From the NCBI GenBank assembly GCA_964504535.1, contig CAZDED010000009.1, positions 1 through 63,289 on the forward strand: a stretch of DNA of 63,289 bases. Reading direction: 5' to 3'. Source of the stretch: an uncultured Gammaproteobacteria bacterium. GTDB taxonomy: Bacteria > Patescibacteriota > Microgenomatia > Levybacterales > GWA1-39-11. Both the position numbers and the translations under genes were made by a program. The notes under the pieces are model-generated. The model was given only the letters and a program-made list of their open reading frames with translations. It was not told the origin of the DNA and did no database searches. Positions 42,730 through 63,289 of the stretch are shown piece after piece. Position 1 is the stretch's first letter. The number at the start of each line of letters is the position of its first letter.

Positions 42730-42770
42730 GCGTACTATTATACGCGAAATAGCGTAATTATGCAAGGGGT

Positions 42771-43907: not shown

Positions 43908-43909
43908 AT

Positions 43910-48230: not shown

Positions 48231-48239
48231 AATTTAACT

Positions 48240-48248: not shown

Positions 48249-48279
48249 CAAAGCCAGCAATATTGATAATAGTTTGAGG

Positions 48280-48663: not shown

Positions 48664-48709
48664 ATTGAAATTGTACCACCAAAAAAATAAATAAGGGTAT
48701 AATTTATCT

Positions 48710-49432
48710 GTGATACGAAAACTTAAGAATTTATTTACTGATATTATTAGCGACTTTACCTCCTGTAAAAACAGGGCTGTATATCTTCTATCATTTTCTC
48801 CAATCAACAAGAAGTTTCTTTTTGCTACATTAATTGCCATATTCTTATTTACCATCTTCCGGTCTTCAAGCAAATATGAATTTTATCTTTATTTTTTAGA
48901 AATTATGTTTGTTAGTCTTATTACATTCATTATTTTTGTACAGTCTGATACTTACTGGTTTTTAAGAAAGAAGGCGTGGAGTTTTAAGCTTGTCGTTAAA
49001 AACAGGAAGAGCATACAAACCACAATCAAAAAAATTAAAGAACTTAAACTTGAGAAAGAGAAAAATCCAAGCGGTGCAATATATGTTACTGCATATAACG
49101 ATTTGGTAGGATATAAACCTCATGCACGAAGACTTGAAATAGAAATTATAATTTTACTTGCAATTCTTTTTTTCACTTTCCCACCATTCTTTATTTTCAA
49201 TCTTGCCCTTTTCTGCATGATGTTTTTTTATGTAACGTTTTATGAAAGCCAAGCCCCAACCTATGTATGGCAAGATATAATGACTCTGACAAATAGCGTT
49301 AAGTCTTTATATGAAGATGATCCAGAAAACTGCAGAAAATTTATCCTTGAAAATGATTCACTATATGTTCGCGAGCTTGGCAATATTTATAGAACTGTAA
49401 GAAATTATAAAAGCAATATCTTTAATCATTAA
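48710..49432 (+). CDS. Hypothetical multi-TM membrane protein
   Basis: 240-aa ORF divergent from the FtsK-gamma gene. The start is uncertain. Confidence 0.4.
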   Translation: MIRKLKNLFTDIISDFTSCKNRAVYLLSFSPINKKFLFATLIAIFLFTIFRSSSKYEFYLYFLEIMFVSLITFIIFVQSDTYWFLRKKAWSFKLVVKNRKSIQTTIKKIKELKLEKEKNPSGAIYVTAYNDLVGYKPHARRLEIEIIILLAILFFTFPPFFIFNLALFCMMFFYVTFYESQAPTYVWQDIMTLTNSVKSLYEDDPENCRKFILENDSLYVRELGNIYRTVRNYKSNIFNH

Positions 49433-49433
49433 T

Positions 49434-49907
49434 TTACGTTTCTAGCATTGTTAATATTGCTTCTTTTCTGTCTTTAAGCATGAATCCCATTTTTTTATGT
49501 AATTTCATCGAGTTCGGATTATCGGTATTAATAAGTGCCTCTATTTTTTCAACTTTTTTTTGTTTAGCAATTGAAATTAATTTCTCATAGAGCAATTGCC
49601 CTATGCCTTGGCCCTGAAATTCCGGATCAATTGCAATATGGTTTACATAAATAGAATCTTTAAAGGGAGAGTTTTCATAAGCAAAAAGAAATCCAACAAT
49701 ATTATTCTCAACATAGGCAACCAACGAGAATCCAGAATCCACGTACGCTTTAAAATCTTCTTTTCTCGAAACCAAACATTCCGTTTTTTTCTTGGATGAA
49801 AGATTCTTCCATTTTTTACCTAAATATTGTATTTGAGTCAATTCATCCACTTCATGTACACCCTTATAATCCTCTTGTTGAACGGGCTTGACCTTAATTT
49901 GTTGCAT
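49434..49907 (-). CDS. GNAT-family N-acetyltransferase
   Basis: HIAIDPEFQGQGIGQLLYEKLI is the acetyl-CoA binding motif A. The start is placed at ATG 49907 (MQQIKV...); the track start is 50045. Confidence 0.75.
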   Translation of the reverse strand: MQQIKVKPVQQEDYKGVHEVDELTQIQYLGKKWKNLSSKKKTECLVSRKEDFKAYVDSGFSLVAYVENNIVGFLFAYENSPFKDSIYVNHIAIDPEFQGQGIGQLLYEKLISIAKQKKVEKIEALINTDNPNSMKLHKKMGFMLKDRKEAILTMLET

Positions 49908-49963
49908 AAAGCGATTATACATCAACTCGTTCCGAAACAAGAAATAATTGTTATAATGACTGG

Positions 49964-50713
49964 ATGAACGGAAAGTTTTACGACAAAGTAGCAAGAAAAT
50001 TTGGAAGCTATTCAAGGTCAATTGCAACCCTTGATGAATATTCAACTCAAGATCCTGAGAAAGTGTTTAAGGAAATGTTAATTAAAATAGGCGGAAAAAA
50101 TAAAAATGCTCTTGATATAGGGTGTGCTGACGGTAATTTTACAATAAAGGTATCAAAATATTTTAAAAACATTACGGGAATTGACATATCTAAAGAAATG
50201 TTGAAAGTTGCTCGTAAAAATCAAGAAACGGCAGGAAATCATAATGTAACATTCCTAAAACAGAGTGTTTTTAGGAACAATTTACAGCCTGAATCATTCG
50301 ATATAATTTATAACCGTCGAGGGCCCACAAATTATCCTTCATTTTATTCATTGCTTAAAACAGGTGGTTATTATCTTGAAATCGGAATTGGGGAAAACGA
50401 TTGCAGGAAAATAAAGGAAATTTTTGGAAGAGGCCAAGGTTATAAAAAATGGGGCAGAAGTACTTTACAAAAGGATATAAAAGAGTTAAAAAAAATTGGC
50501 TTTAAGATCGTTATGTCGGAGGACTATTTTTATAATGAATATTACCCTTCTTATAATGAGCTCGACGTTTTTTTACAGGGGGTACCAATTTTTGAAGATT
50601 TTGATTCTTCAAAAGATAAGAAATTTTTACAGCAATATCAAATAAAGTTCCAGGATAAAAAGGGGATTAAATTACCACGTCATAGAATCGTTATTCTTGC
50701 AAAAAAAGTATAA
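49964..50713 (+). CDS. Class I SAM-dependent methyltransferase
   Basis: Motif I: ALDIGCADGNFT. Confidence 0.75.
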   Translation: MNGKFYDKVARKFGSYSRSIATLDEYSTQDPEKVFKEMLIKIGGKNKNALDIGCADGNFTIKVSKYFKNITGIDISKEMLKVARKNQETAGNHNVTFLKQSVFRNNLQPESFDIIYNRRGPTNYPSFYSLLKTGGYYLEIGIGENDCRKIKEIFGRGQGYKKWGRSTLQKDIKELKKIGFKIVMSEDYFYNEYYPSYNELDVFLQGVPIFEDFDSSKDKKFLQQYQIKFQDKKGIKLPRHRIVILAKKV

Positions 50714-50715
50714 AT

Positions 50716-51759
50716 TTATCTATCTTTTCCTCTTAATACAAGCGAAAGAGTTCTTAGCTCTGAATTATTTAACTTATCAAACGGTTTTCCAAGTATATCG
50801 GAGGGGATTCCAAACCCGTCAACAATAGCTCTTTCCCCAACTCTCAAAAGGCGCGCCCTACTGTTTGAACGATCGTCATTTACCTCAATTCTACCAAATT
50901 CGTTGTATTCTCTTGCAGCCTGTTTTAAATCGAAATTTGCGCTTCTTCTTATTACCTTGCGCCTTTCTTTTTTAGTGCGTGTACCTAAATTTTGCTGTTC
51001 AGTAAATTCTGTTAAACCTTCTTTCATACAATTTCTAACAAGCGGGCTTTTATTTGAAGTTAAAAAAAGTTTTCTCAATAAGAAGTCTCTCATATTGGGA
51101 GGCCCTTCCTTAGGGGAAAGACGAATTATAGATGATTCTGTTCTTGGAGGAGGAAGAAAACTGTCTCTTCCTAATTCCATTAGAACATCTATATCAAAGA
51201 ATGATTGAGCAAGGAGTGTTAATTTTCCAAAGCCAAGACTGTCTTCGTTTTGTGCTTGAATTGATTCGGCTAATTTTCTTCCTACAACCATTGTTGCACT
51301 TTCAATATCAAGTTCCGCTATGCGACGCATAAACGGTTCGGTTATGTGATAAGGGATACTGGCAATAATCTGTGTATCATTTTCGTCTTCTTTTGCAACA
51401 AAATCTTGCAATCTAAGTGCAAGAGCATCCCCATAAACCACATGTAAATTTGAATATCGATTTGAAATTTCAGATAAAATAGGTTCATATCTTCTGTCTA
51501 TTTCTATTGCAACAACTTTAGTTGCGTTTTTAGCTAATGCTTCCGTTAATTGTCCGATTCCGGCACCGACTTCAAGAACTTTATTTCCGGGACTTATTGA
51601 ATGGGTTAGCAAATTTATGGCTTTGTCATCAATTAAAAAATGCTGTCCTAGATTTTCATTTGGTACAATGTCTAACGATTCAATACGACCCAGAACTACT
51701 TGTTTCAGCAGCATTGAATTATCCGGCGTCTGTTGGTTTAAGCTTTCTATTCTATTCAT
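50716..51759 (-). CDS. rRNA adenine N6-dimethyltransferase family protein (KsgA/Erm fold) with a C-terminal extension of roughly 90 aa
   Basis: LGQHFLID (QNFL-like), LEVGAGIGQLTE and IIASIPYHITEPF (NIPY-like). At 347 aa it is longer than my recalled 260-290 aa for KsgA/Erm. Confidence 0.75.
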   Translation of the reverse strand: MNRIESLNQQTPDNSMLLKQVVLGRIESLDIVPNENLGQHFLIDDKAINLLTHSISPGNKVLEVGAGIGQLTEALAKNATKVVAIEIDRRYEPILSEISNRYSNLHVVYGDALALRLQDFVAKEDENDTQIIASIPYHITEPFMRRIAELDIESATMVVGRKLAESIQAQNEDSLGFGKLTLLAQSFFDIDVLMELGRDSFLPPPRTESSIIRLSPKEGPPNMRDFLLRKLFLTSNKSPLVRNCMKEGLTEFTEQQNLGTRTKKERRKVIRRSANFDLKQAAREYNEFGRIEVNDDRSNSRARLLRVGERAIVDGFGIPSDILGKPFDKLNNSELRTLSLVLRGKDR

Positions 51760-51904
51760 GGTAAAATTTATTTTCTAAAAATAAATAGGCCTATATTATA
51801 CTATTCGTGAGTAAATAACGCAATTATAAAAGAGGGGTATCAAATATAGTTTTTTCTATATGGTTGTTACGGTTTAATTAAATTAAAACAAACAGATTAA
51901 TCGG

Positions 51905-52678
51905 TTAAATTGGTTGAAGATTAATTATGGAATCAGACGCTTCTTCGAGTGCCTTTATCTCATCACTCCATTTTTCATTCATAGCCATCCGATTAAAAAG
52001 TAGATCAAATACCATGTCTAAAATTGGATTATTTTGATGTGTTTTTGAAAAATCCATTATTGATGTTTTATTAAAAGTAAACATTTTGTTTAGAAGATCC
52101 AATTTAATTAAATTACCGTTTTTTAGATAAACAAAAATTTCTCGTCTTGGTTTTCCGTACTCAACATTAACTTGCCATGGAATTTTTCTTTCAAACAGAT
52201 AAAACCATAAGTCTATATCGTGTATCCCCAAATCAAATTTCGGATTGATCGAATAATCTCTTTGTGGTTTCAAACCAAACCGATAGCTTTTAATCTTTTT
52301 AATTTCGTGCGTTTTGATGTTTCTTTTTAAAAACTGGACTATTGGATTATATCTTTCGAGGGTAGATTGATATAAGATTAATTTTCTTTTCTGTGCTAAG
52401 TTTTCAAGTATCTTTGCTTCATTCGATGAAAAACAAAGAGGTTTTTCGCATAGAACATTATAATCATTCATTAACAATTTCTTTACAATTTCATAATGAT
52501 TCTGGATTGGAGTAGAAACAATAACCAAATCAACGGGTTGTCGGTAATCTATAAATTCATCAACATTGCTAAAATATATTCTGTTCATGACCGGATTAAC
52601 GTCCACAATATATTTCCCATTTAATAAACTGTCATAAATTTTCCCCATCTTTCCGAATCCGATAATTGCAATATCCAT
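51905..52678 (-). CDS. Gfo/Idh/MocA-family NAD(P)-dependent oxidoreductase
   Basis: MDIAIIGFGKMGKIY Rossmann N-terminus and the LCEKPL motif. Confidence 0.7.
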   Translation of the reverse strand: MDIAIIGFGKMGKIYDSLLNGKYIVDVNPVMNRIYFSNVDEFIDYRQPVDLVIVSTPIQNHYEIVKKLLMNDYNVLCEKPLCFSSNEAKILENLAQKRKLILYQSTLERYNPIVQFLKRNIKTHEIKKIKSYRFGLKPQRDYSINPKFDLGIHDIDLWFYLFERKIPWQVNVEYGKPRREIFVYLKNGNLIKLDLLNKMFTFNKTSIMDFSKTHQNNPILDMVFDLLFNRMAMNEKWSDEIKALEEASDSIINLQPI

Positions 52679-52679
52679 A

Positions 52680-53735
52680 TCATTTCTCTACAAAATACAA
52701 AAGCTTTTTTGATAATTCTTGCCAAGATAAGTCTTTTGCCAACTTTATATTGCTTTTTTTTGCAATATATTTGAGCTTTAATGCGCTTTTTATTCCCTCC
52801 TTCCAGGAAAATACATTACCGTCAACCATTCGGCCTGTCTTTCCATCCTTTAGGAGCCATTCCATTCTTCCTTTACCCATTACAATTGGTGATCCAATTG
52901 CTAAATATTCACTTATAACTATCGGGCTACAGTCAACTTCAACCGGAAAAACAAATACGTCCGCTATATTCATATAGTCAGGGACTTTTTCTATAGGAAT
53001 CATGCCGCATTTAATGATGTTTTTTCTATTTGGAATTTCCTTTAAAAGAGGGCCATCTCCAACTACGAAAAACACTTGCCTATCGTCTATTGCTTCGCTA
53101 ATTACTTTTAAATTATCGTACCATTTTCCAACTTTCCCACAATACATTATTATCTCTTTTCCCATTAAGTCAACGTTGTATTTTTTCTCAAAATACTTTT
53201 TTAACAATGCTATTTTCGCAGATGAATAAGGATAGAAAAGAGATCTGTCATATCCATTCGGAATAATTATAGTATCTTTCGTTTTTAGACCCCAATTTTT
53301 CATTGCTTCGAGAATTACCGGTGACTGTGCAATAACCTTAGATGCTCTTTGCAAAATATCCAAATAGCTATATCGTAGAAGGTAATACTGTTGATTTACG
53401 CCAAATTCCTTTAAATACATTTCATCATACCAGTCTATACAATCAAATATAATTGGAGTTTTAATTTCCTTGCCGATAATTAGGTTGCTAAGCGGATTGT
53501 CAATCATCAAATAATCAAAACTGCGATTAGAAAGAAACTTTTTTAATCTTTCTCGCTCCTTCGTAACAACATCAATATCTTTCAAAATTTTATGTTTAAA
53601 GAAATCAAATTCGATTTCTTTTGAATACTTTAATAAATATTGCTCCCTTTGCGGGAATCCTACTAGATATGATTTAGCGAAGTGTTGAAGGCTTTGGGTG
53701 TATGTTTTATCTCCAATTTTTAAAACTTTTTTCAT
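52680..53735 (-). CDS. GT-B glycosyltransferase (family 4 / group 1)
   Basis: 351 aa; C-terminal domain ...FFVVGDGPLLKEI...VFVFPVEVDCSPIVISEYLAIGSPIVM (E-x7-E-type region). Confidence 0.7.
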   Translation of the reverse strand: MKKVLKIGDKTYTQSLQHFAKSYLVGFPQREQYLLKYSKEIEFDFFKHKILKDIDVVTKERERLKKFLSNRSFDYLMIDNPLSNLIIGKEIKTPIIFDCIDWYDEMYLKEFGVNQQYYLLRYSYLDILQRASKVIAQSPVILEAMKNWGLKTKDTIIIPNGYDRSLFYPYSSAKIALLKKYFEKKYNVDLMGKEIIMYCGKVGKWYDNLKVISEAIDDRQVFFVVGDGPLLKEIPNRKNIIKCGMIPIEKVPDYMNIADVFVFPVEVDCSPIVISEYLAIGSPIVMGKGRMEWLLKDGKTGRMVDGNVFSWKEGIKSALKLKYIAKKSNIKLAKDLSWQELSKKLLYFVEK

Positions 53736-54727
53736 ATAAAAAATTCTTCAAGAGCCTTTCTTATTGTTGAAATTTCATTCATGGTTAAATTCCATCTGCA
53801 TGGAATTGAAACAATTGAAGAAGTGATATCTTCATACTCATCCCTTACCGAAACGGGAAGCACATCATTATCGTAATAAACTTTAGTTTCAATTCCTTTA
53901 TTTTTCATATGTTTTATAAATTTGTCTCTATTATTCAAAATAATATTAAAAGTTGAAAATATGTGCCTGCTTCCTTCCTGTTCTTCCAAAAAAGGTTGAC
54001 TACCGGGAATTAGGGGAATAAGTTCTTTTGCAATATCTCTTTGAATATCCGTTCTCTTGTCATAATCTTTAAGCTCGTCTAAAAGAAACTCTGCCTTAAC
54101 TTCATCAAATCGAAGATTTAGCGCTACATTTTCGGTTAGTTTTCCGCCGTTTCTACCTGATTCAATAAATACTTTTAATTTTTCGTAATAATCTTTATTA
54201 TCGGTAACAACGGCTCCTCCGTGGCCACAAGTGTGGAGCGTTTTGGTCGGATAAAAACTATAACAACCCAATAATCCAAATGTTCCCACTTTTTTCCTGT
54301 TTAATTCCGCACCAAACGATTGGCATGCATCTTCGATAAGAACACTTTTATTAATTGTTTTAACTAATTCATTTGGTTGACCGTATAGATGTGTTATTGT
54401 ATAAAGTTCATTTTTCGTTGTTGCAAGATGCTTTAAGAAAAGCATGCGTTTGAAATTTATTTCATAATTTAACAAACGAGCGGGTTGGTAAGTTGCCGGA
54501 AAAGTATACGGATCAACGGAAAGCTTGCGATATTTATCCCTCAATACCCAATAGCATGCAAGAAGCGCTGAGGTTCCGCTGTTTGTTAATATCACATATT
54601 TTACACCAAGATATTCTTTTATCTTTTCCTCGAGCTCTTTTATTTTTATTCCATCAATCCAATCTCCGCTATTGTATCTCGTACTTTTATGTTGAGATGC
54701 AAGTTTATAAAGAGGGATTTTAATCAT
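53732..54727 (-). CDS. DegT/DnrJ/EryC1/StrS-family PLP-dependent sugar aminotransferase
   Basis: VILTNSGTSALL, EDACQSFGA and SFYPTKTLHTCGHGGAVVT (PLP lysine context). Confidence 0.8.
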   Translation of the reverse strand: MIKIPLYKLASQHKSTRYNSGDWIDGIKIKELEEKIKEYLGVKYVILTNSGTSALLACYWVLRDKYRKLSVDPYTFPATYQPARLLNYEINFKRMLFLKHLATTKNELYTITHLYGQPNELVKTINKSVLIEDACQSFGAELNRKKVGTFGLLGCYSFYPTKTLHTCGHGGAVVTDNKDYYEKLKVFIESGRNGGKLTENVALNLRFDEVKAEFLLDELKDYDKRTDIQRDIAKELIPLIPGSQPFLEEQEGSRHIFSTFNIILNNRDKFIKHMKNKGIETKVYYDNDVLPVSVRDEYEDITSSIVSIPCRWNLTMNEISTIRKALEEFFI

Positions 54728-54736
54728 ATAACGTAC

Positions 54737-55456
54737 CTACATTATTTCTGAAGCAATTTTTAATGCTTTAGGAGTCAATGGAGAATAATTGTTTATTATG
54801 AAAGCTTCTCCATATTCGCCATTGATGGAAGCGCCCCTAATACTTGCTACGGATCTTAATCTTCTTTCAATCCAATCTTGGTTCATACTATGCTCATCTT
54901 TTACTGATGTGTAAAAATTAAACGCTTCAATTTTTCGATTTATATTTTCTTTCGTAAGTAAGGATACAACCGAATAATCAAATGGTGTGGTCATCTCCAA
55001 ATCAACTTCTCCTTGCAAGAGTAGGGGAGCTCTTGATTTTGTAATGCCCCCCACAACGGCACAGCCGCTTTGAAAATTTGCTTCCGGTACTATCCTTCCC
55101 AGCGTTCTGTGGTCAATATGTTTATCTTGAGAATAGTGAGTGAAAATTACGTCTGGATTAATTTTTCTAATTTCTTTAATTGTTTGCTGTAAAAGAACGC
55201 CCTCATTTTTTCCGACCTCCATGTCATGAAAGGGAAGAAAATTAATTTTATATCCAAGGACATCGGAACTTTTATTTGCTTCTATTAGGGAACGCTTTTT
55301 TCTTTTTGCTTGTGTTTCTTTATAGAAGTAGCCTTGACAATTTTGTGTGTAAAATGTAACGAATACTTCATGCCCCTTTTTGATCAGCTTATCTATAGTT
55401 GCTCCACACATAATAATTTCATCGTCCGGATGCGCAACGAGTATTAATATTTTCAT
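54737..55456 (-). CDS. LmbE/PIG-L-family N-acetylglucosaminyl deacetylase
   Basis: MKILILVAHPDDEII and HIDH metal-binding motifs. Confidence 0.8.
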   Translation of the reverse strand: MKILILVAHPDDEIIMCGATIDKLIKKGHEVFVTFYTQNCQGYFYKETQAKRKKRSLIEANKSSDVLGYKINFLPFHDMEVGKNEGVLLQQTIKEIRKINPDVIFTHYSQDKHIDHRTLGRIVPEANFQSGCAVVGGITKSRAPLLLQGEVDLEMTTPFDYSVVSLLTKENINRKIEAFNFYTSVKDEHSMNQDWIERRLRSVASIRGASINGEYGEAFIINNYSPLTPKALKIASEIM

Positions 55457-56148
55457 ATATTTTCTTTAATCTCTGCGATGTTTTTCTCTCTTTCCTTACA
55501 ATTGGCACATTCATGGCATGAGGATATCTTCCCGTCGTTGTATTGGGCATTCCAACACGAAACCGTTAAATCAAGCATTCCTGCATCGGAAAGTCTTTTT
55601 AACAAGGCTTTTTTCGTGAGAGATCTTATTGGGAGGAACACCTCCATAGGCCGCAAGAAGGATTTTGATAGGATGTCTTCAACTCCTTTGTGGTGAAAAT
55701 AATCGTTATCTCCAAATACAAAATTGTCGTCTAACATATAACCTATTGCTATACCGTCCCCATCGATTTGCTCGGCATATATTCCTGCAATTACCATAAA
55801 AAGAGTATTTCTTCCCGGAACCCAAGCATCGGAATCGTCTTTGGACTCTTCACCAAGTAGTTTACTTCTGGTTAATTTCTTAAGAAGGTCTGTTTCGATA
55901 ACTTGCGTTGGTTGAAATCCAAGTTGGACCGGTACGTTTTCTACCAGTTGTCTTTCTGCCGTAGCAGAAGATTGTCCGTAATCAATAAAAAGAGGGTACA
56001 CATCTTTTCCTTGTTCTTGAAGAATTAATCCGGCTACCGTACTATCAACACCACCCGAATACATTAAAACGACTCTTCCGGTATTTTCCCTCTGAAGACC
56101 TCTCAGCAGATCTTCGTTCATTTTTGTTTTTATAGGTTCTAATTCCAT
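55453..56148 (-). CDS. queC: QueC-family PP-loop ATPase (7-cyano-7-deazaguanine synthase-like, divergent middle region)
   Basis: VLMYSGGVDST PP-loop, FIDYGQ, VPGRNTLF and the 4-Cys zinc motif SCWNAQ...SSCHECANCKER. Confidence 0.75.
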   Translation of the reverse strand: MELEPIKTKMNEDLLRGLQRENTGRVVLMYSGGVDSTVAGLILQEQGKDVYPLFIDYGQSSATAERQLVENVPVQLGFQPTQVIETDLLKKLTRSKLLGEESKDDSDAWVPGRNTLFMVIAGIYAEQIDGDGIAIGYMLDDNFVFGDNDYFHHKGVEDILSKSFLRPMEVFLPIRSLTKKALLKRLSDAGMLDLTVSCWNAQYNDGKISSCHECANCKEREKNIAEIKENI

Positions 56149-56151
56149 TTA

Positions 56152-57168
56152 TTAATTTAGTTGTATTAATGAAAAAAACTTTTCAAGATTTAATTTCTTT
56201 ATTCTCTCAGATGATAAATCATTATAAATACTATAACGTAAATGATGCATTTTAACATAACCTTGCATTTCATTCAAAGCTTTTAATACTATTGGTCTGT
56301 TTAGTCCTTCTAAAACATATTTAATACCAACAGAATCCATGAATGATTTTATTTCTATAATGTCCTGTCCCTGAATAAATGCTGTTAACAAAACGCTAAA
56401 AGCTATCATTTCTCCATGCAAAAATTTTTTTAATTTATTTTCCATAGCATATGTAAAGAAGTGTTCCCCTCCCTCTTCAGGCCTACTATTTCCATAAAAA
56501 TTACATAGCTGGACTTCCATAGCGAGAAACTGCACAAGGTAAATTAACCCCTTTTTTGAAACTTTTCTAATTTCACTTGATTCCGTGAGTAATCCTCTAA
56601 ATATTGATTCTGCCATTAAGGCTACGCTTTCGGAATATTTTTCATCTTCTGCTGCCTTTTTTCTATTGTTTGCATATTTCCAATCAAACAACCCGGTATA
56701 TATTGAAAGAACGTCACCGCAACCGCTTAGATGAAATCTTTTTGGACTTTTTTTAAGTAAATTATAATCTAGCAAAACCAAATCTGCTTTTTTTGATGGG
56801 AAATAGGTGACACACCCCTTATCTCTTAATCCGGTGCAATCAACTAGAAAAGCATCTGTTGAAATAATAGTTGGAACACATATTATTTCAAGGTTCCAAT
56901 TATAGGCGATAAAACGGCCCAAATCACATACTCTTCCACCACCCAATGCATAAATAACCTTTCCTACATGTTTTTCTTTTACTAATTTTTTAGCATATTC
57001 TTTTTCTGCGGATTTAATATAAATTGTTTGAACAATATTTAGATTTTTTATTATATTTTTGCTTTTCTTTAATGATGCAGGGCTTGTTATTAGAATTACG
57101 GGACGGGAATCAAATAGTGTATCTATACTTCCCCATTTTATTTTCGGTAGATTTGAAATATATCTCAT
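56152..57168 (-). CDS. Glycerol-1-phosphate dehydrogenase (AraM/EgsA)-like enzyme of the DHQS/Fe-ADH superfamily
   Basis: YALGGGRVCDLGRFIA (GGGxxxD), VPTIISTDAF and SGCGDVLSIYTGLFDWKYA (GxGDxxxxxxxxxDW). Confidence 0.6.
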   Translation of the reverse strand: MRYISNLPKIKWGSIDTLFDSRPVILITSPASLKKSKNIIKNLNIVQTIYIKSAEKEYAKKLVKEKHVGKVIYALGGGRVCDLGRFIAYNWNLEIICVPTIISTDAFLVDCTGLRDKGCVTYFPSKKADLVLLDYNLLKKSPKRFHLSGCGDVLSIYTGLFDWKYANNRKKAAEDEKYSESVALMAESIFRGLLTESSEIRKVSKKGLIYLVQFLAMEVQLCNFYGNSRPEEGGEHFFTYAMENKLKKFLHGEMIAFSVLLTAFIQGQDIIEIKSFMDSVGIKYVLEGLNRPIVLKALNEMQGYVKMHHLRYSIYNDLSSERIKKLNLEKFFSLIQLN

Positions 57169-57170
57169 GA

Positions 57171-58703
57171 TTAATTAGTAGATAGAATAAAAGGATGGAA
57201 TAGGTCCATGTTTCTGAAAGCCAAATGAAAATATAATTCGGATGCAAATTTATCTATAACTTTTGATGGGTCTGGATATCTTGAAGGGTCGAGTGAATGT
57301 TGAAAATTTGCAATCATTTGTTGCAAGGTTTCTCTTTTAGATTTTTCTCCTTCATTTGTGCGTTTTAAGAAAACCTGCAGGTTGGCATTCATAGTTTCAT
57401 TACCATCTGCAAGCTCAGCTTCTAATTCACCCAATAAAGGCAACATATCGTTAAAACCTGCAGCAAATTCAGGATGAGTAAATGCCTGATACCCATAAAA
57501 GCTAAGCAACTCAGGGGGAACGTCCAATAGCCTTCCTTTTCTCTTAAACTCATGATAAAGAGGAGTATTCGGTTGCATTTCAAGATTGGCAATAATGTAT
57601 CCACTTGAGCCCAGATCCTTAAGAAGCTTTACTTCTTCGCGAATGTTTTTTCTGTTCTGCCAGTCCAATCCGACTATGTATGTTGAAACAACATTAATTC
57701 CAGCATCTTGCAATCGTGCATTAACAGCTTTCAAGTCAACTCCTTCATTTTTTTTATATCCTTTAATTAAAGATTCGACTCCAATATTTACGGTACTGAG
57801 CCTTAACGCACCTTTTGTTAACTCATCTATATCATACTTATCAATTACCTTTGAAGATGTTGTGCTGACCAGTTCACATTGAAATGGCAGATCCCTACAA
57901 AGTCTAAGAACGTCTTTCCACAATTTCACATTGCCCATCCCTTGAGGTTCTGCAATACTTACGGTAAAGGTCTCACTTTCGGGAGCAATCGTGTCATGTG
58001 CAGAAATTATTGCATCTTTAATCTCGTCAGCGGCAAATGGCGCCCTATATTCCTGTCCGTACTGTGCTGTTGAAGGGCAGAAATCACACCCATACATACA
58101 TCCCAAACTACTGACCAAAAGACCATAACTTCCTCTCTTTGTAATTCCGTTAAAACGGGTTTCGGTGTCTGAACGAATTGTTGCGACTTTTAATGGATCA
58201 TTGGTAGGTTGGCCAATTATTTTTCTTAAATCGGTAACCTGATCTCCTCTTAATCTATAGTCAGATAAATTTACCGACTCTTCAAGAAGAGCGCCAACAG
58301 AAGAGGCAATTACCTTAACCTCCGGATGTTTATCTCTTACGAATTGTGCAATTTCTCTAAATGTACTGTATCCGCTTAAATATGTTGAAATAACAATATG
58401 TCCATACCTACCGGTATCAAGCTCTTCCCTTGCTCTTTCAAGAGTTATTGGTTCTGGAATTACCGTATTTGGAAGGTTTATATTTGCGCTCATCCATTCA
58501 CCGGGAGCATTTTGTGGATACCAATCAAATGAAAACGTGTCTTCTCTTCCTTGAGTTTTGGTTTGTTGAATATAATCGGCAAGAAATTGAGAATCATAAT
58601 ATTTATCAAATCCTTTTCTTTGTAATCCTTCTAATTTTTCAGTGGGATTTGTTGTGTTGTATGACGGATCTTGAGCTATAGTAAATAGTACTTCTTTACT
58701 CAT
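57171..58703 (-). CDS. Radical SAM enzyme with a roughly 190-aa N-terminal Rossmann-like (B12-binding-type) domain
   Basis: CxxxCxxC cluster (LGCMYGCDFCPS) after an N-terminal domain (HIVISTYLSGYSTFREIAQFVRDKHPEVKVIASS). The class-B assignment rests on architecture only. Confidence 0.75.
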   Translation of the reverse strand: MSKEVLFTIAQDPSYNTTNPTEKLEGLQRKGFDKYYDSQFLADYIQQTKTQGREDTFSFDWYPQNAPGEWMSANINLPNTVIPEPITLERAREELDTGRYGHIVISTYLSGYSTFREIAQFVRDKHPEVKVIASSVGALLEESVNLSDYRLRGDQVTDLRKIIGQPTNDPLKVATIRSDTETRFNGITKRGSYGLLVSSLGCMYGCDFCPSTAQYGQEYRAPFAADEIKDAIISAHDTIAPESETFTVSIAEPQGMGNVKLWKDVLRLCRDLPFQCELVSTTSSKVIDKYDIDELTKGALRLSTVNIGVESLIKGYKKNEGVDLKAVNARLQDAGINVVSTYIVGLDWQNRKNIREEVKLLKDLGSSGYIIANLEMQPNTPLYHEFKRKGRLLDVPPELLSFYGYQAFTHPEFAAGFNDMLPLLGELEAELADGNETMNANLQVFLKRTNEGEKSKRETLQQMIANFQHSLDPSRYPDPSKVIDKFASELYFHLAFRNMDLFHPFILSTN

Positions 58704-59697
58704 AATTAGTTTTAATACCTCGTACTAAGCTTTTATTTAAAGAGTTTATGAAATTATTAACGGAATCGGGTAGGTGTTCTAGATTATATCCACCCTCAAA
58801 AACCACACAACTTGGAATATTAAGTCCTCCAATTTTATAACCCAAATAGCCATAATCATCTGCGGTAAGTCCTGCTAACGGTGTTCTTCCAGGTGGATGA
58901 TCTTCCTCATGTCCATCGAATCCCGCGCTTACTACTAATACATCTGGATTATAACTATCTATAGTTTTAATTGCTCTTCCAAATTTTTCTTTATATCTAT
59001 CTGTAGAAACACCGATATCAACAGGGATATTAACAATTAAGCCTTTTCCCAGTCCCTCACCAATCTCTTCTGGAAAACCTGTGAATGGAAATGCTATGCT
59101 AGGGTCTGCATGGACAGAAACAAACAGCGCCTCTCCAGAATTAAAAAAAATATCCTGTGTCCCATCTCCATGGTGAATATCAAAATCTAATACTGCAACT
59201 TTAGCACCAGCATTTCGTAGGTTACGAGTAGCTAATGCTGCATTATTAATAAAACAAAAACCATGATAAAAATCATGCCCCGCGTGATGTCCAGGGGGAC
59301 GCGAGAGTGAAAAAACCAATTTAGTTTTCTTTTGAATTAGTAGCTCTGAAGAATGAATACTATTACTTGCAGCTAGAACTGCCTGATCATAGGTACCCTT
59401 TAATATTGGTGTTGAATACGCGGTGTCACTACAAAACTTAGTAAACGCTTCATCCCCCACTTTAAGTAACTCGCTGTATCTTTGAAGCAACTCAATCATT
59501 TCAGGTGAGTGGGTCTCTTTTATTAAGGGGTGTTCATATATATTCGGTGCTTCAACTTTTATGTTAAGCCCGCTCCCAAGAAGAGCATTTTTTACCAATT
59601 CTACCCTTTCAGCAATTTCACATGGATCATCTTTACGCGTTTTGTGTTGCGCATGTTTTTCATCGTAAACTAAAAATACATCATGCTCTATTTCCAT
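58696..59697 (-). CDS. Histone-deacetylase-family amidohydrolase (acetylpolyamine/acetoin-utilisation type)
   Basis: RPPGHHAG, DFDIHHGDGTQDIF and SAGFDGHEEDHP. Confidence 0.85.
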   Translation of the reverse strand: MEIEHDVFLVYDEKHAQHKTRKDDPCEIAERVELVKNALLGSGLNIKVEAPNIYEHPLIKETHSPEMIELLQRYSELLKVGDEAFTKFCSDTAYSTPILKGTYDQAVLAASNSIHSSELLIQKKTKLVFSLSRPPGHHAGHDFYHGFCFINNAALATRNLRNAGAKVAVLDFDIHHGDGTQDIFFNSGEALFVSVHADPSIAFPFTGFPEEIGEGLGKGLIVNIPVDIGVSTDRYKEKFGRAIKTIDSYNPDVLVVSAGFDGHEEDHPPGRTPLAGLTADDYGYLGYKIGGLNIPSCVVFEGGYNLEHLPDSVNNFINSLNKSLVRGIKTNYE

Positions 59698-60887
59698 AAA
59701 TCTGTATTAACTTGTCCTGTTTCAAATAACTTGCCCATTAATTCATTTGATGGAATTGCTCGAGAAGCATTTTCTAGAAAAGTCCTAATATCATCCAAAT
59801 ACATACTTGTTTGTAATCGGGAATCTCGTTGTCGAATTGTCACAGAATCATTTTTTACACCCTCTTCATCTGCTGTAAATACATATGGCACACCGATACC
59901 ATCTGCCTTTCTATATCTACTACCAATAGAGCCCGTTTCTAGAATTGGTGTTCGAATACCGTATTCTTTTAATAGTTCACTTACGAGTATGGACATATTG
60001 TGCAACTCAGGTGTTTTCTTAAGGGGAAAAACCATTCCCTGCACGGGAGCCAATCTTTCGGGTAAATGTAGAACGACTCTATCTCCAATTTTCTCCAATG
60101 CTTGTCCCAATGCTATATAGAAAGGTCTGTCGCTTGAAAAAGAAATCTCAAAAACCTCGGGATATTTACCGTTCACTTCCAGTTTTGTTCCTGTCGCAAG
60201 ACTATGTCTTTTAAAATCGTAGGATGAGCGGTATTGAATTCCGAGCAATTCCATTTCATTTCCGTCCTCGTCCGGTACATATAAACCAAATGCTTTGTTG
60301 GCATAAAATGGTTTATCAGATTCAATCTTTTCTCTAAAATTCATACTACCTTCTTTAATACCAACACTATTCATTAATACATAAGATAAATGCTGTAGGT
60401 AATCGACTGTAGCGGCAACATCTACATCTTTTGTCTGCATAAATATATGTCCTTCGTGTCCTGTATATTGTCTTGTTCTCGTTTGCCATTCAGTTTGTCT
60501 ATCATTAGGCAATACGATTCCCGACTGAAAAACTCTAAATGGTAAATTTCCCCTATAATATTCGAGCAGTCTTCTAAAAAGAGGGTATATGGTTGTAGCG
60601 AGTTCACCTCTACCCATCAGCGCTTGACCGTCTGAAGTTTGTGTTTGGAACATCTCGTCATTAAATTTCTGTAAATGTCCACTTGCTTCCCAGGCTTTTC
60701 GGGGATAAAGGACCGGTGTCTCAATCTCATCAAAGCCTTCATCGATAAAAACTTCCCTGAATTGTTGTTCCATATTGGTTTTAAGGGCTTTACCCATAGG
60801 ACCATATGTCATAAAACCAGCCACGCCGTATGGACTGTGCTCCGGCCCCCATAAAAATCCGTTTGAAACTAAATGTTCTTTTAACAT
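59688..60887 (-). CDS. Class II glycyl-tRNA-synthetase-like paralogue (catalytic core plus anticodon-binding-like domain), divergent motif 2
   Basis: GlyRS-type N-terminus (GFLWGPEHSPYGVAGFMTYGPMGKALKTNMEQQF), motif-3-like PEVFEISFSSDRPFY, and a class IIa C-terminal domain (APVQGMVFPL...GSIGSRYRKADGIGVPYVFTAD...VTIRQRDS). Confidence 0.75.
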   Translation of the reverse strand: MLKEHLVSNGFLWGPEHSPYGVAGFMTYGPMGKALKTNMEQQFREVFIDEGFDEIETPVLYPRKAWEASGHLQKFNDEMFQTQTSDGQALMGRGELATTIYPLFRRLLEYYRGNLPFRVFQSGIVLPNDRQTEWQTRTRQYTGHEGHIFMQTKDVDVAATVDYLQHLSYVLMNSVGIKEGSMNFREKIESDKPFYANKAFGLYVPDEDGNEMELLGIQYRSSYDFKRHSLATGTKLEVNGKYPEVFEISFSSDRPFYIALGQALEKIGDRVVLHLPERLAPVQGMVFPLKKTPELHNMSILVSELLKEYGIRTPILETGSIGSRYRKADGIGVPYVFTADEEGVKNDSVTIRQRDSRLQTSMYLDDIRTFLENASRAIPSNELMGKLFETGQVNTDLWK

Positions 60888-60890
60888 AAT

Positions 60891-61634
60891 CTATATTCCT
60901 CTTTTGTCTCCCCAAAGCAATACATGCAAACGAGGGGTCAATCGCCATCCTCGCTCCTTTACTCCTTCAACAACTTCTAGTGCATGTGTTTTAATATCAT
61001 CATCTGTTGTCCCTTCAGGCATGATAATAATTTTTGACGGATCAAGACTGCAATCTTCAACCAATTGAGAAATTTCATCCAGATCTCTTTCGCTTTTTAC
61101 AACAAATTTAAAAGTTGTATTGGGTAGCTCATTAAACTGAGATAGCACTTCCGGTTTATATCTCCTGTTAAGCGCATTACCTGAATTTTCCAGCTTAGGA
61201 GAAACATTAAATTGACATTTATCTGCCAGTGTTTGAGTAGGAGGAATAGTTCCGTTTGTTTCAATTTCAATATCCCAGCTCGGTATCAAATCGACAAATT
61301 TACTAATTCTTTCTTGTTGTATCAATGGTTCACCACCTGTTATGACTAATCTTTTTACAGGGTATCTCTCGATTTCTGAAAGTGTTTTTTGGTAATCCCA
61401 GTTCTCGGCATCTTGCCAAAATTCTTTGGACTTTCTATCCCAGGTATATTTCGTATCGCACCAACCACATTGTAAATTACAAAAATTAAGGCGAAGAAAA
61501 ACTGCCGGCTTTCCTATGCTTTGACCCTCGCCTTGGATTGTAAAAAACACACCATCTCCGGATACCTTAAACTCATCAGCATTCATTCTCATCGATTCAC
61601 GCTCTGATATTGTTGGTGTATATATTTCTGTCAT
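60891..61634 (-). CDS. queE: 7-carboxy-7-deazaguanine synthase (radical SAM)
   Basis: FTIQGEGQSIGKPAVFLRLNFCNLQCGWCDTKYTW. The start at ATG 61634 forms an ATGA overlap with the queD stop; the track start is 61691. Confidence 0.85.
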   Translation of the reverse strand: MTEIYTPTISERESMRMNADEFKVSGDGVFFTIQGEGQSIGKPAVFLRLNFCNLQCGWCDTKYTWDRKSKEFWQDAENWDYQKTLSEIERYPVKRLVITGGEPLIQQERISKFVDLIPSWDIEIETNGTIPPTQTLADKCQFNVSPKLENSGNALNRRYKPEVLSQFNELPNTTFKFVVKSERDLDEISQLVEDCSLDPSKIIIMPEGTTDDDIKTHALEVVEGVKERGWRLTPRLHVLLWGDKRGI

Positions 61635-61990
61635 TCTTTGCTTTCTTTGCCTGGTCCTTGAAAGGCAACAAAACTGCTTGGAGTTTCCCAAAGCTTAATT
61701 TCGTACAGTGGCATATCTCCTTCTAACTGCTCCCATATCCACATAGCTATATTTTCTGCTGTCGGTTGCTTAATAATTTTATTAATAAAAGCGTGGTCAA
61801 GTTTTTGGAGCACCTTTTTATTAACAGAATTTTTTATTTCGGTAAAATCCATGACCATTCCGTTTTTTTGGACAACGCCTTTTAAAATAACTTGTAGTTT
61901 ATAGGTATGCCCATGTAAATTAGCGCAAGGACCATTATAGTTACGTAACCTGTGGGCAGAATCGAAAGTAAACTGTTTAGCAATAAACAT
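61631..61990 (-). CDS. queD: 6-carboxy-5,6,7,8-tetrahydropterin synthase
   Basis: 119 aa; FTFDSAHRL...CANLHGHTYKLQV (PTPS/QueD signature). Confidence 0.88.
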   Translation of the reverse strand: MFIAKQFTFDSAHRLRNYNGPCANLHGHTYKLQVILKGVVQKNGMVMDFTEIKNSVNKKVLQKLDHAFINKIIKQPTAENIAMWIWEQLEGDMPLYEIKLWETPSSFVAFQGPGKESKE

Positions 61991-61992
61991 AA

Positions 61993-62778
61993 TTAATTGT
62001 GTTTAACATCGTCAATACTTGTATATCGAGCGTAGGCATTATGGTTATGTATTGATTCGAAACTTTCACACTCTACAGTGAACGAAAGAATGTTTTTGTT
62101 CTTTTTTATCGAAAGAGCAGTATCTCTAACCGCATCTTCAACAAATTTAGGATTTTCATAGGATTTTTCGGTTACATATTTTTCATCAGGCCTTTTTAGT
62201 ACAGGGTATATCTCACAACTACCGTTTTTTTCAATCGTTTTTATTAATTCATCTATCAATAAGTCCCCTTTTAGAAGTGCGTCTACCGTTATAATCGATC
62301 TTTGGTTGTGAGCATTAAATTTACTTATTGCTTTACTGCACGGGCACAAAAGCATAACAGGAACTTTCACTATTATCCTTTGTTCCGAATCTCCGGAATT
62401 AACCCTTGAATATATTTTGCATTCATAATCAACGAAACTACTTTTTCTGGAAACAGGAGCCTCTTTTTTCAGGAAATATATAAAAGAAATTTCAAGATAA
62501 GCATTGTCTGCCTGTAATTCCTTTTTTGCTTCACTCGCTATTGATTTCAATTTTTCAAACGTTAGAATATTTTCCCGATTCCTAAAAAGTATTTCTACAA
62601 ACCTACTCATATGATGTCCTTTTAATGAATGGCGTAAGTCTGCAAAGAAATTAACAGATGCCGTAACCTGTTGGGTATCTTTTTTGTGGGGGATTAACAA
62701 AGGAAGCGATATCTTGGTAATACCAACCCTATCTAGTCGAAGTCCTCTTTTATCTTTTAGTTTTTGTATGTCTTTCAT
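61993..62778 (-). CDS. folE2: GTP cyclohydrolase I type 2 (FolE2/MptA family)
   Basis: 261 aa; GHHMSRF, LLCPCSK and NHNAYA motifs. Confidence 0.85.
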   Translation of the reverse strand: MKDIQKLKDKRGLRLDRVGITKISLPLLIPHKKDTQQVTASVNFFADLRHSLKGHHMSRFVEILFRNRENILTFEKLKSIASEAKKELQADNAYLEISFIYFLKKEAPVSRKSSFVDYECKIYSRVNSGDSEQRIIVKVPVMLLCPCSKAISKFNAHNQRSIITVDALLKGDLLIDELIKTIEKNGSCEIYPVLKRPDEKYVTEKSYENPKFVEDAVRDTALSIKKNKNILSFTVECESFESIHNHNAYARYTSIDDVKHN

Positions 62779-62781
62779 GCT

Positions 62782-62808
62782 ATAAAAAAACGAGCGTACC
62801 CGCTCGTT
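62782..62808 (-). terminator. Intrinsic terminator/attenuator inside the folE2 leader (AACGAGCG-ggta-CGCTCGTT followed by TTTTT)
   Basis: The minus strand reads AGAACGAGCGGGTACGCTCGTTTTTTTATAGCATG. The 8-bp stem and U-tract end 6 nt before the folE2 ATG. Confidence 0.6.
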
Positions 62809-62899
62809 CTATATAACTATATATCAATATTGGTAGGTATAACCTAAATGCGGGTCGCCCTTTCCACTATTGTTTGCAACTTGAATCTAATTGAACTCG

Positions 62900-62927
62900 A
62901 TTATACCATAATAATTAGAAAAAGCAA
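62900..62927 (-). promoter_or_regulatory. Strong sigma-70-type promoter for the 12-gene operon (TTGCTT, 16-nt spacer, TGgTATAAT)
   Basis: The minus strand reads TTGCTTTTTCTAATTATTATGGTATAAT. The predicted leader is about 115 nt. Confidence 0.55.
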
Positions 62928-62965
62928 AAAATCAATTCTAAAAGAGATTTTACCTCAAATAGTGC

Positions 62966-62994
62966 TTGACTTCACTGAGACGGTCTGATATATA
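62966..62994 (+). promoter_or_regulatory. Sigma-70-type promoter (TTGACT, 17-nt spacer, TATATA) facing the pilin gene
   Basis: Direct reading; it is divergent from the operon promoter. Confidence 0.5.
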
Positions 62995-63027
62995 TTGATA
63001 CAATAATTTAATTGTTCGGTTTTATGG

Positions 63028-63053
63028 AAACTGCTCTCCGGGGCAGTTTTTTT
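63028..63053 (+). terminator. Intrinsic terminator (AAACTGC-tctccggg-GCAGTTT followed by TTTT) between that promoter and the pilin gene
   Basis: A perfect 7-bp stem followed by a T-run, about 30 nt downstream of the -10 box and 34 nt upstream of the pilin ATG. Confidence 0.55.
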
Positions 63054-63086
63054 GTATTTACCGCTTTTTAGAAAGGGGGTGAAGGC

Positions 63087-63289
63087 ATGAAAAAACTAAT
63101 AACATTACAATCAATTATTTTAACTTCATTAATAGTCGCTACTCCTGTGTTTGCACAAGCTGCAGATGTTACAAAAGTCCAAAGCTTTATAGAAAATATT
63201 ATCCAGATTCTAACGACCATGGCAGGATTACTAGCGTCCGGCTTTTTTGTATGGGGTGGAGTCAGATACATAACATCAAGTGGAAATCC
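63087..63289 (+). CDS. VirB2/TrbC-like type IV secretion pilin (partial; runs off the window)
   Basis: Hand translation gives MKKLITLQSIILTSLIVATPVFAQAADVTKVQSFIENIIQILTTMAGLLASGFFVWGGVRYITSSGN... It has a signal peptide ending AQA and a hydrophobic helix followed by GG-x-x-Y-I-T-S-x-GN, typical of TrbC/VirB2 pilins. The SD is AAAGGGGGTGAAGG. Confidence 0.55.
   Translation, partial: MKKLITLQSIILTSLIVATPVFAQAADVTKVQSFIENIIQILTTMAGLLASGFFVWGGVRYITSSGN

Follow-up and report, generated by a model that had tools for sequence, protein, structure and literature searches.

The window analysed here, the 63,289-nt contig CAZDED010000009.1 (GenBank assembly GCA_964504535.1), carries on its minus strand a gene (59688..60887; ATG start, 399 amino acids) whose product resembles glycyl-tRNA synthetase (GlyRS) of the alpha2 type, and which is the fourth gene of an operon that also encodes enzymes for 7-deazaguanine synthesis. 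That this GlyRS-like protein is a divergent paralogue encoded within the operon is strongly supported, and a housekeeping role is argued against by its residues, by the loss of a domain, by the rarity of the family and by its linkage to the gene cluster. As to function, the reading that we prefer, with about even confidence, is a GlyRS-derived enzyme that has moved out of translation and performs an optional tailoring step for a conserved, mobile gene cluster by transferring a glycyl group to an amine. The status as a paralogue is well established; a function as ligase is what we infer to be most likely.

The initial annotation, made from the sequence of the window, had described the gene as a divergent GlyRS paralogue in an operon; this description is borne out by a separate clade, by the loss of the motif-2 arginine and of the insertion domain, by rarity, and by a linkage to the cluster that persists through rearrangements. 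Its further proposal, an amino-acid ligase acting on a pathway intermediate, fares less evenly: it is favoured by comparative evidence (co-encoded GT4-family glycosyltransferase and PIG-L deacetylase genes, and a slot in the cluster whose occupant is exchanged), and it is opposed by the lost arginine and the retained anticodon-binding domain. The size of 399 amino acids and the spacing of 3-10 nt to the neighbouring genes were reproduced, in that the gene starts 3 nt past the stop of the QueE gene (60891..61691) and shares its final 10 nt with the start of an HDAC-like gene (58696..59697).

Fold and active site of the GlyRS-like protein

The sole Pfam match of the GlyRS-like protein is HGTP_anticodon (PF03129; residues 285-372, 3.1e-13). 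Its nearest NCBIfam families are the two equivalog models for alpha2 GlyRS, PRK04173 (227.1 bits; cut-off 312) and glyS_dimeric (TIGR00389; 186.5 bits; cut-off 243.3), and both cut-offs are missed. Among proteins of solved structure, GlyRS of Nanoarchaeum equitans, human and mycobacteria lead the sequence matches, the closest being the N. equitans enzyme (5z5e; 8.6e-35 by sequence, 3.2e-64 by profile search). An AlphaFold2 model was built from the 32-sequence family alignment (pLDDT, the predicted local distance difference test, 89.6; pTM, the predicted template-modelling score, 0.89), with low confidence solely in the motif-2 loop (residues 131-138). When this model was compared with 8u2p, 8slg, 5z5e and 5e6m by Foldseek, template-modelling (TM) scores of 0.83-0.85 were obtained (E ~1e-33). 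The predicted structure thus has the alpha2-GlyRS fold with a class IIa anticodon-binding domain, in agreement with the alpha2-GlyRS-type N-terminus and class IIa-like C-terminus noted in the initial annotation, and it comprises a class II catalytic core that lacks the insertion domain, an HGTP anticodon-binding domain and a C-terminal helix; this helix (residues 380-398 in the model) is additional to canonical GlyRS.

Residues were compared in a MAFFT alignment of 32 paralogues, 23 canonical GlyRS and four threonyl-tRNA synthetases (ThrRS), and in a hidden Markov model alignment. The motif-2 stretch (residues 125-149; 60441..60515, minus strand) reads VLPNDRQTEWQTRTRQYTGHEGHIF; it retains T138, R139, Y141 and E145, and is remodelled in that P127 takes the place of the catalytic arginine. 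The anomaly noted earlier in this stretch proved to be a property of the whole aligned and scanned family: position 127 is proline in 32/32 aligned paralogues, and arginine in 23/23 canonical GlyRS and 4/4 ThrRS, and a motif scan found proline there in 41/41 family members; one metagenomic member (L013) has leucine at this position. The block PNDxQTEWQxRTRQYTxHEGH is the best-conserved segment of the family. Further replacements relative to canonical GlyRS are Asp for Glu at position 129 (30 of the 32 paralogues, versus Glu in 23/23 canonical enzymes), Ala/Gly for Gln at position 143, His for Gln/Glu at position 147, and Ser for Gly at position 251 in motif 3, and the canonical RPETAQG segment reads RxExATT in the paralogues.

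The ligand-contacting residues were taken from the structure of Mycobacterium tuberculosis GlyRS with glycyl-sulfamoyladenosine (glycyl-AMS; PMC12208437). In GlyRS, the motif-2 arginine binds the alpha-phosphate/sulfamoyl group and the glycyl carbonyl (PMC12208437). Apart from the replacements given above, the site is well kept. The triad of glutamates that binds the glycine ammonium group (E95, E145 and E247), S249 and the motif-3 arginine R254 are invariant among the 32 aligned paralogues. R254 belongs, with T138 and Y141 (a Phe in canonical GlyRS), to the residues that touch the adenine; T138, Y141, the ribose/metal glutamate E213, R137, R139, R220, D224 and the lid tyrosine Y195 are kept in all or nearly all of the 32. 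The presence of R254 also substantiates the motif-3-like segment that had been recognized initially. Taking R137, R139, R220 and E213 as contacts of the triphosphate and metal of ATP, their conservation suggests that ATP is still bound. To judge by the alignment, the protein still looks built for holding glycine and an adenine nucleotide, and a site this well kept argues for ligand binding and probably for catalysis. The comparison with GlyRS that the initial annotation had proposed therefore points both ways: the motif-2 arginine is lost, and the glycine pocket, the motif-3 arginine and most nucleotide contacts are kept.

A second change concerns the tRNA-binding parts. The insertion domain of alpha2 GlyRS, which lies between motif 1 and the RPE strand, contributes to binding of the acceptor stem. 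It is reduced to 22 residues in every paralogue, versus a median of 85 residues (61-149) in canonical GlyRS, and in solved alpha2-GlyRS structures it becomes ordered jointly with the tRNA recognition loops (PMC12208437). As far as can be read from the alignment, the hardware for the acceptor side of tRNA is gone in the family. The anticodon-binding domain keeps Y325, D329, G332, R354, D355 and Q359, which are specific to GlyRS and differ in ThrRS.

Distribution of the family and the exchangeable slot

A search of 5.8 billion proteins yielded 41 clusters of family members (360-416 amino acids, 41-100% identity), and below this range identity falls sharply to ~27% for canonical GlyRS. In a neighbour-joining tree that included the 23 canonical alpha2 GlyRS and the four ThrRS, the paralogues form a single clade (99/100 bootstraps), and GlyRS of the DPANN/nanoarchaeal type are the nearest canonical sequences. 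A phylogeny had been suggested in the initial annotation as a means to recognize a separate clade with conserved synteny, and both were found, the synteny in 18/21 loci (see below).

The family is rare. When one genome per species (185,579 species) was scanned with three family-specific peptide patterns, real family loci were detected in 3/185,579 species-representative genomes: a Microgenomates metagenome-assembled genome (MAG; GCA_049287205.1, on the 1.02-Mb contig JBAQFJ010000001.1), a MAG of Shapirobacteria, and a contig that had been binned as Methanoperedens. Further source names of family members are Gottesmanbacteria and a Pedobacter MAG, and the radical SAM (S-adenosylmethionine) family that co-occurs with the GlyRS-like gene extends the hosts to Levybacteria and Roizmanbacteria. 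Canonical alpha2 GlyRS is abundant in Patescibacteria, and a family so rare cannot be the GlyRS of its lineage. A tblastn search with Patescibacteria GlyRS against the window and all fetched loci returned the paralogue and no other GlyRS; a database search seeded with Patescibacteria GlyRS gave only Paceibacteria-type relatives among the best 120 matches, and none of these was on the 1,020,031-bp Microgenomates contig. Two candidate loci were discarded, one from Geobacter (L012), for which the pattern matched over 38 residues only, and one (L024) whose protein is a prolyl-tRNA synthetase.

From public assemblies, 21 distinct related loci were collected, and the presence or absence of genes was tabulated by tblastn. 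Eighteen of these have the GlyRS-like gene, always amid the same genes, with varying gene order and strand. The shared genes encode FolE2, QueD and QueE, a radical SAM protein of ~500 amino acids, an iron-dependent alcohol dehydrogenase (Fe-ADH) resembling glycerol-1-phosphate dehydrogenase (G1PDH), a divergent QueC and a PIG-L deacetylase; the genes for the radical SAM protein, Fe-ADH, QueC and PIG-L were found wherever the contig was long enough. Genes for a DegT-family aminotransferase, a GT4-family glycosyltransferase and a Gfo/Idh/MocA oxidoreductase occur in most loci. With PIG-L in every sufficiently long locus and GT4 in most, enzymes that would create a GlcN-type amine are co-encoded with the GlyRS-like gene. 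In most loci, the radical SAM gene follows downstream of the GlyRS-like gene, either immediately or after a single insert, and what lies between the two varies (HDAC-like, APH-type kinase, or nothing). No gene for TGT, DpdA or a carrier protein was seen in the gene tables of any locus. Small open reading frames (ORFs) near the GlyRS-like gene were considered as a carrier-protein acceptor and dismissed; they are unrelated to each other, have no carrier-protein serine motif by eye and no Pfam PP-binding domain, and the 104-aa ORF in locus L028 looks by eye like a Gfo remnant.

Variant clusters were found by searching with the radical SAM protein and taking those members that are located on contigs outside the list of GlyRS-like loci. 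In a Patescibacteria MAG (GCA_018820145.1; locus L030), the slot upstream of the radical SAM gene, with an overlap of 8 nt, holds a divergent protein of 400 amino acids that resembles seryl-tRNA synthetase (SerRS; 7338-8540, plus strand; serS 273.6 bits versus a cut-off of 301.65). It is not GlyRS-like (BLASTP, E 0.23), and its best match in the Protein Data Bank is SerRS of Aquifex aeolicus (1.2e-56). The motif-2 FRIE and the motif-3 arginine are kept in this protein, and the Seryl_tRNA_N arm went unmatched even with E values up to 1 admitted; an Asp/Glu-type racemase gene adjoins it. The SerRS-like protein is a candidate for a second tailoring enzyme derived from an aminoacyl-tRNA synthetase (aaRS). 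A second variant (L029) is a cluster without an aaRS-like gene whose slot is filled by a 294-aa, weakly GT2-like protein, which was rejected as a member of the GlyRS-like family (hhalign probability 0.2%), and in a third (L031) the cluster is present with no aaRS-like gene at all. A slot that is of Gly type, of Ser type or empty while the remaining pathway is unchanged behaves like one for an amino-acid-adding tailoring enzyme, and unlike one for a translation enzyme or an indispensable subunit.

The closest relative of the window is locus L025, whose cluster proteins are 83-97% identical to those described here, except QueE (77%), the GNAT acetyltransferase (51%) and the GlyRS-like protein (78%); the lower identity of the latter fits a peripheral role. 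The same locus has no HDAC-like gene, and its QueE and GlyRS-like genes are separated by two inserted genes, one for a 581-aa protein without Pfam or NCBIfam match (8250-9995, plus strand) and one for an additional methyltransferase.

Proposed function and its alternatives

In the route that we propose, a 7-deazaguanine unit (7-carboxy-7-deazaguanine, CDG, or preQ0) would be made via FolE2, QueD, QueE and the QueC-like enzyme, and an amino-sugar or aminocyclitol unit derived from N-acetylglucosamine (GlcNAc) would be made via the Gfo/Idh/MocA, DegT, GT4, PIG-L, radical SAM and Fe-ADH-like enzymes. The GlyRS-like protein may bind glycine in its GlyRS-type pocket together with ATP, form or hold an activated glycyl species, and glycylate a pathway intermediate at a free amine, for which the amine exposed by the PIG-L deacetylase and that installed by DegT are candidates. 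K187, H147, N128 or a second metal ion might stand in for the motif-2 arginine. Glycine as the substrate, the use of ATP despite the missing arginine, the amine acceptor and the final product are all parts of this proposal that we infer from the conservation of the site and the company of the gene.

The nearest functional precedent is MshC, the Cys:GlcN-Ins (cysteine:glucosaminyl-inositol) ligase of mycothiol synthesis, a class I paralogue of cysteinyl-tRNA synthetase (CysRS) that keeps its adenylation motifs. The parallel lies in an aaRS paralogue that is associated with GT4 and PIG-L/LmbE enzymes, and in the proposed logic to glycosylate, to deacetylate, and to aminoacylate the freed amine; there is no sequence relationship of the GlyRS-like protein to MshC or CysRS. 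Other class II aaRS paralogues with tasks outside translation are the SerRS-like amino acid:carrier-protein ligases, AsnA, EpmA/PoxA, HisZ, the DNA polymerase gamma accessory subunit (Pol gamma B) and VlmL. The amino acid:carrier-protein ligases have likewise shed the tRNA acceptor-side module, but there is no carrier-protein gene near the GlyRS-like gene. HisZ and Pol gamma B have also lost the motif-2 arginine, and Pol gamma B, too, retains an anticodon-binding-like domain, but the set of ligand contacts is far better kept in the GlyRS-like family than in these non-catalytic paralogues. Apart from Pol gamma B, we know of no paralogue family that is derived from GlyRS. GluQRS (YadB), a class I paralogue of glutamyl-tRNA synthetase that glutamylates queuosine (Q34) in tRNA-Asp, is similarly an aaRS paralogue tied to 7-deazaguanine chemistry; the present cluster, in contrast, comes with neither TGT nor a tRNA and has the look of small-molecule biosynthesis. 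With alpha2 GlyRS itself (M. tuberculosis 8U2P, N. equitans 5Z5E, human GARS1 5E6M) the protein has in common the fold (TM 0.83-0.85), the glutamate triad, the adenine-stacking aromatic residue, the motif-3 arginine, the ribose/metal glutamate, the lid tyrosine and the HGTP domain; it differs in its identity of ~27%, in scores under the equivalog cut-offs, in altered motifs, in the missing insertion domain, and in being rare and cluster-bound rather than universal.

Several observations weigh against a glycine-adding ligase. The arginine is lost throughout the family, and class II homologues without it, HisZ and Pol gamma B among them, are not known to adenylate; unlike MshC, the protein belongs to class II, is without the key adenylation residue and has kept its anticodon domain. 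Nearly all family members have kept this domain in conserved form, and most small-molecule ligase paralogues of aaRS have shed it. Two further residues of the M. tuberculosis enzyme are replaced in the paralogues, namely Q214 (Ala/Gly), which in that enzyme touches the ribose and the glycyl carbonyl (PMC12208437), and the buried E218 (His). Finally, the amino-sugar genes (GT4, DegT and Gfo) were not seen in the examined stretches of loci of the minimal, L006/L019 type and of L028, so that the acceptor would not be universal.

The retained anticodon domain bears most directly on an alternative, which we regard as unlikely, in which the protein has a tRNA-dependent role: it would bind tRNA-Gly and either charge a tRNA on behalf of the pathway, in the manner of VlmL in valanimycin synthesis, or hand over the glycyl group from Gly-tRNA(Gly) made by the housekeeping enzyme. 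In the latter variant no adenylation is needed and the motif-2 arginine is dispensable, and its loss thus fits a chemistry that bypasses adenylation; tRNA-dependent glycylation of an amino sugar is also a feature of streptothricin-type pathways. The conserved GlyRS-specific residues of the HGTP domain, which differ in ThrRS, speak for such a role, as do the YxG loop and the motif-2 loop, which are present and highly conserved and which are the tRNA recognition loops of M. tuberculosis GlyRS (PMC12208437). Against it, all members lack the insertion domain, R137, R139, R220 and E213 are invariant or nearly so, which would be unexpected if ATP were unused, no tRNA-Gly gene was found in the window or in seven related loci, and the SerRS-like substitute in L030 has no recognizable tRNA-binding N-terminal arm.

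The loss of the arginine could instead mean that the protein is a non-catalytic regulator that senses glycine or nucleotide, or a scaffold, comparable to HisZ or Pol gamma B, with the adjacent radical SAM protein as likely partner. The family-wide replacement, the non-catalytic nature of the known class II homologues without this residue and the tight juxtaposition with the ~500-aa radical SAM gene agree with this idea, which we place next among the unlikely ones. However, nearly the whole set of ATP and glycine contacts is invariant; L029 and L031 have the radical SAM gene and the remaining cluster genes but not the GlyRS-like gene, and hence the protein is not obligatory; an HDAC-like or APH gene often lies between the two genes; and the substitute in L030 keeps both catalytic arginines, which points to catalysis in the slot.

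A role in immunity appears improbable. The product would mimic glycyl-AMP (a deazapurine base, a sugar or cyclitol and a free amine, with no phosphate) and be sequestered by a crippled copy of GlyRS acting as decoy. The lost residues (R to P, Q to A/G) are indeed those that touch the phosphate/carbonyl linker, with the contacts to base, ribose and ammonium group kept, and the cluster contains resistance-like genes (GNAT, HDAC-like deacetylase or APH kinase, KsgA/Erm-like methyltransferase). However, the recurrent rRNA methyltransferase points to the ribosome as target and not to GlyRS, the SerRS-like replacement in L030 would imply another target for a closely related cluster, the slot has no aaRS-like gene in L029 and L031, and self-resistance to synthetase inhibitors makes use, to our knowledge, of a full, active and insensitive synthetase. 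A housekeeping glycyl-tRNA synthetase that happens to sit in the operon is hardly tenable: the GlyRS fold, the glycine pocket, the anticodon-binding domain, the lack of another GlyRS in the 63-kb window and the frequent scoring of proteins of the candidate phyla radiation under curated cut-offs would allow it, but the motif-2 arginine is absent and the insertion domain deleted, every cell needs a GlyRS and three of 185,579 species genomes carry this family, Patescibacteria have canonical alpha2 GlyRS in abundance, contigs labelled Methanoperedens and Pedobacter carry the gene along with the cluster, and the related clusters L029, L030 and L031 are without it.

The preferred reading, a glycine-adding tailoring enzyme, can be extended to the cluster as a whole. 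In this extended form, which we offer tentatively and consider rather doubtful as a complete statement, the family would be a tRNA-independent glycine ligase that operates without the motif-2 arginine and decorates an undescribed queuine-like metabolite composed of 7-deazaguanine and a GlcNAc-derived aminocyclitol or amino sugar; the metabolite would be made mainly by ultra-small Patescibacteria, from a cluster that is spread on mobile elements and switched by a leader RNA not recognized before. The metabolite might be a ribosome-targeting antibiotic, because KsgA/Erm-like, GNAT and APH genes recur.

The recruitment of aaRS paralogues to metabolism is already known, and what is unusual here is an 'invariant' arginine that is replaced in an otherwise intact site, together with a retained anticodon-binding domain. 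If active, the protein would represent a new way of running class II chemistry without the motif-2 arginine; if inactive, a new ligand-binding module. The variants of Gly type, of Ser type and without synthetase constitute a natural experiment on what the enzyme adds. The conserved cluster of 12-15 genes joins 7-deazaguanine synthesis to amino-sugar/cyclitol chemistry and resistance-like genes, and its hosts are Patescibacteria, which have minimal genomes and are not known as makers of such compounds.

Gene cluster and genomic setting

All genes of the cluster are encoded on the minus strand unless indicated otherwise. The first gene of the operon encodes the GTP cyclohydrolase FolE2 (61993..62778; PF02649, 2.6e-82; NF010200, 264 bits, over the cut-off), and is followed by those for the 6-carboxytetrahydropterin synthase QueD (61631..61990; TIGR03367, 108.4 bits versus a cut-off of 89.25) and for a QueE-like radical SAM enzyme, 7-carboxy-7-deazaguanine synthase (60891..61691; assigned by Pfam/NCBIfam). 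The true start of QueE probably lies downstream of the listed TTG, since the latter runs 61 nt into QueD. Downstream of the GlyRS-like gene are encoded a deacetylase resembling HDAC and acetylpolyamine amidohydrolases (58696..59697), which is a variable member of the cluster (elsewhere replaced by an APH-type kinase, or absent), and the radical SAM protein (57171..58703; ~510 amino acids, CxxxCxxC at about residues 202-209). The latter has no relative in the Protein Data Bank by sequence, and shows a weak, collinear match to HpnJ (25 bits, 7.9e-6), so that an HpnJ/PtmC-like role is a lead only. Next come an Fe-ADH_2 or G1PDH-like oxidoreductase (56152..57168) and the divergent QueC homologue (55453..56148; TIGR00364, 100.5 bits versus a cut-off of 150.3), for which preQ0 synthase is one possible activity and CDG amide synthetase of the RoyL type, coupling an amine to 7-carboxy-7-deazaguanine, another.

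The candidate genes for the amino-sugar unit encode a PIG-L/LmbE-family deacetylase (54737..55456; best NCBIfam match BshB1, 78.9 bits), a sugar aminotransferase of the DegT/DnrJ/EryC1 family (53732..54727), a GT4-family glycosyltransferase (52680..53735) and a Gfo/Idh/MocA oxidoreductase (51905..52678; best match UDP-GlcNAc 3-dehydrogenase, 70.9 bits). A homologue of KsgA/Erm-family rRNA adenine dimethylases follows (50716..51759; ksgA, 150.7 bits versus a cut-off of 171) and recurs in most loci, and two recurrent accessory genes, for a SAM-dependent methyltransferase (49964..50713, plus strand) and a GNAT acetyltransferase (49434..50045), complete the set. The KsgA/Erm-like gene is kept in nearly all loci through many rearrangements, most copies score under the KsgA cut-off, and L006 has two (6767-7546 and 14984-15856); others are located in L001 (14506-15552) and L004 (19811-20692). 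Together with the GNAT, APH-type kinase and HDAC-like genes, the KsgA/Erm-like gene suggests that the producer protects itself against a ribosome-targeting product.

Clusters with complete CDG/preQ0 pathways that lack enzymes for insertion into nucleic acids have been argued to be secondary-metabolite clusters, and divergent QueC homologues (RoyL) are reported to be amide synthetases that couple CDG with amines (bioRxiv 10.64898/2026.04.15.718813). The present cluster resembles the 7-deazapurine clusters for toyocamycin, huimycin, dapiramicin and roseomycin (RoyL) in its FolE, QueD, QueE and QueC-like genes without TGT or DpdA. It also resembles the genes for pactamycin and for the cyclitol ether of bacteriohopanetetrol (BHT; PtmJ/PtmG/PtmC, HpnJ) in its set of glycosyltransferase, deacetylase, radical SAM protein, oxidoreductase and aminotransferase, and a logic leading from GlcNAc to an aminocyclopentitol has been proposed for both of these compounds (PMC9092360); the weak HpnJ match of the radical SAM protein (25 bits) is the sole direct test of this likeness. 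None of the described clusters of either kind has an aaRS-like gene, and the present hosts are mostly Patescibacteria (Microgenomates lineages) rather than actinomycetes. A 2026 survey of 7-deazapurine clusters makes no mention of such an architecture (bioRxiv 10.64898/2026.04.15.718813), and a search of the literature found no paper that describes the GlyRS-like family or its cluster.

In one Microgenomates MAG (L001), the cluster is without QueD and QueE, and is flanked by two genes for Vut_1 proteins (YhhQ-type queuosine-precursor transporters; 8876-9894 and 19234-19887) and by a short, 108-aa GTP_cyclohydroI-like ORF. This arrangement suggests that the 7-deazaguanine precursor is taken up there rather than made de novo.

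The 5' leader of folE2 (62783..62885, minus strand) is a candidate cis-regulatory RNA. A conserved element of ~55 nt has its core (AAGGGCGAYC...GRTTAKACCT; 62835-62861) within a longer imperfect hairpin, and a terminator-like hairpin with a T-run (62788-62805, minus strand) directly precedes the folE2 start codon. The element lies upstream of folE2 in six distinct loci, the window included; the others are L025 (5513-5539), L016 (183-206), L026 (7949-7972), L008 (234-257) and L006 (7651-7675). Changes on both sides of stems P2 and P4 are compensatory, and G-U pairs are present. The element matches no Rfam 15 family and is a candidate for a new riboswitch or attenuator of the cluster. No T-box, glycine riboswitch, preQ1 riboswitch or any other Rfam family was detected in 48000-63289. 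The five tRNA genes of the window are for Arg (two), Lys (two) and Glu.

The cluster is located downstream of recombinase, ATPase and restriction genes, in a stretch of lower G+C content. A tRNA-Lys (32128-32200) and a tRNA-Glu gene (33122-33194) lie beside a gene for a large serine recombinase (33133-34707), followed by genes for a TrwB/HerA-like ATPase (35155-37797), a LexA-like repressor (42112-42765), a type I restriction-modification system (42771-48230) and an FtsK-gamma protein (48280-48873), and the G+C content falls from ~0.39-0.41 to 0.31-0.38 past ~34 kb. Related clusters adjoin an rve transposase gene (L026), or a relaxase-like gene and another FtsK-gamma protein (L027). The deazaguanine cluster may thus sit on an integrated mobile island, and the recombinase/tRNA, transposase and relaxase neighbours fit horizontal spread.

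Upstream of the cluster promoter, a partial ORF (62990-63289, minus strand) encodes a small hydrophobic protein (MKKLITLQSIILTSLIVATPVFAQAADV...) that by eye bears a signal peptide and is pilin-like; the ORF ends in a strong terminator-like hairpin (63026-63051).

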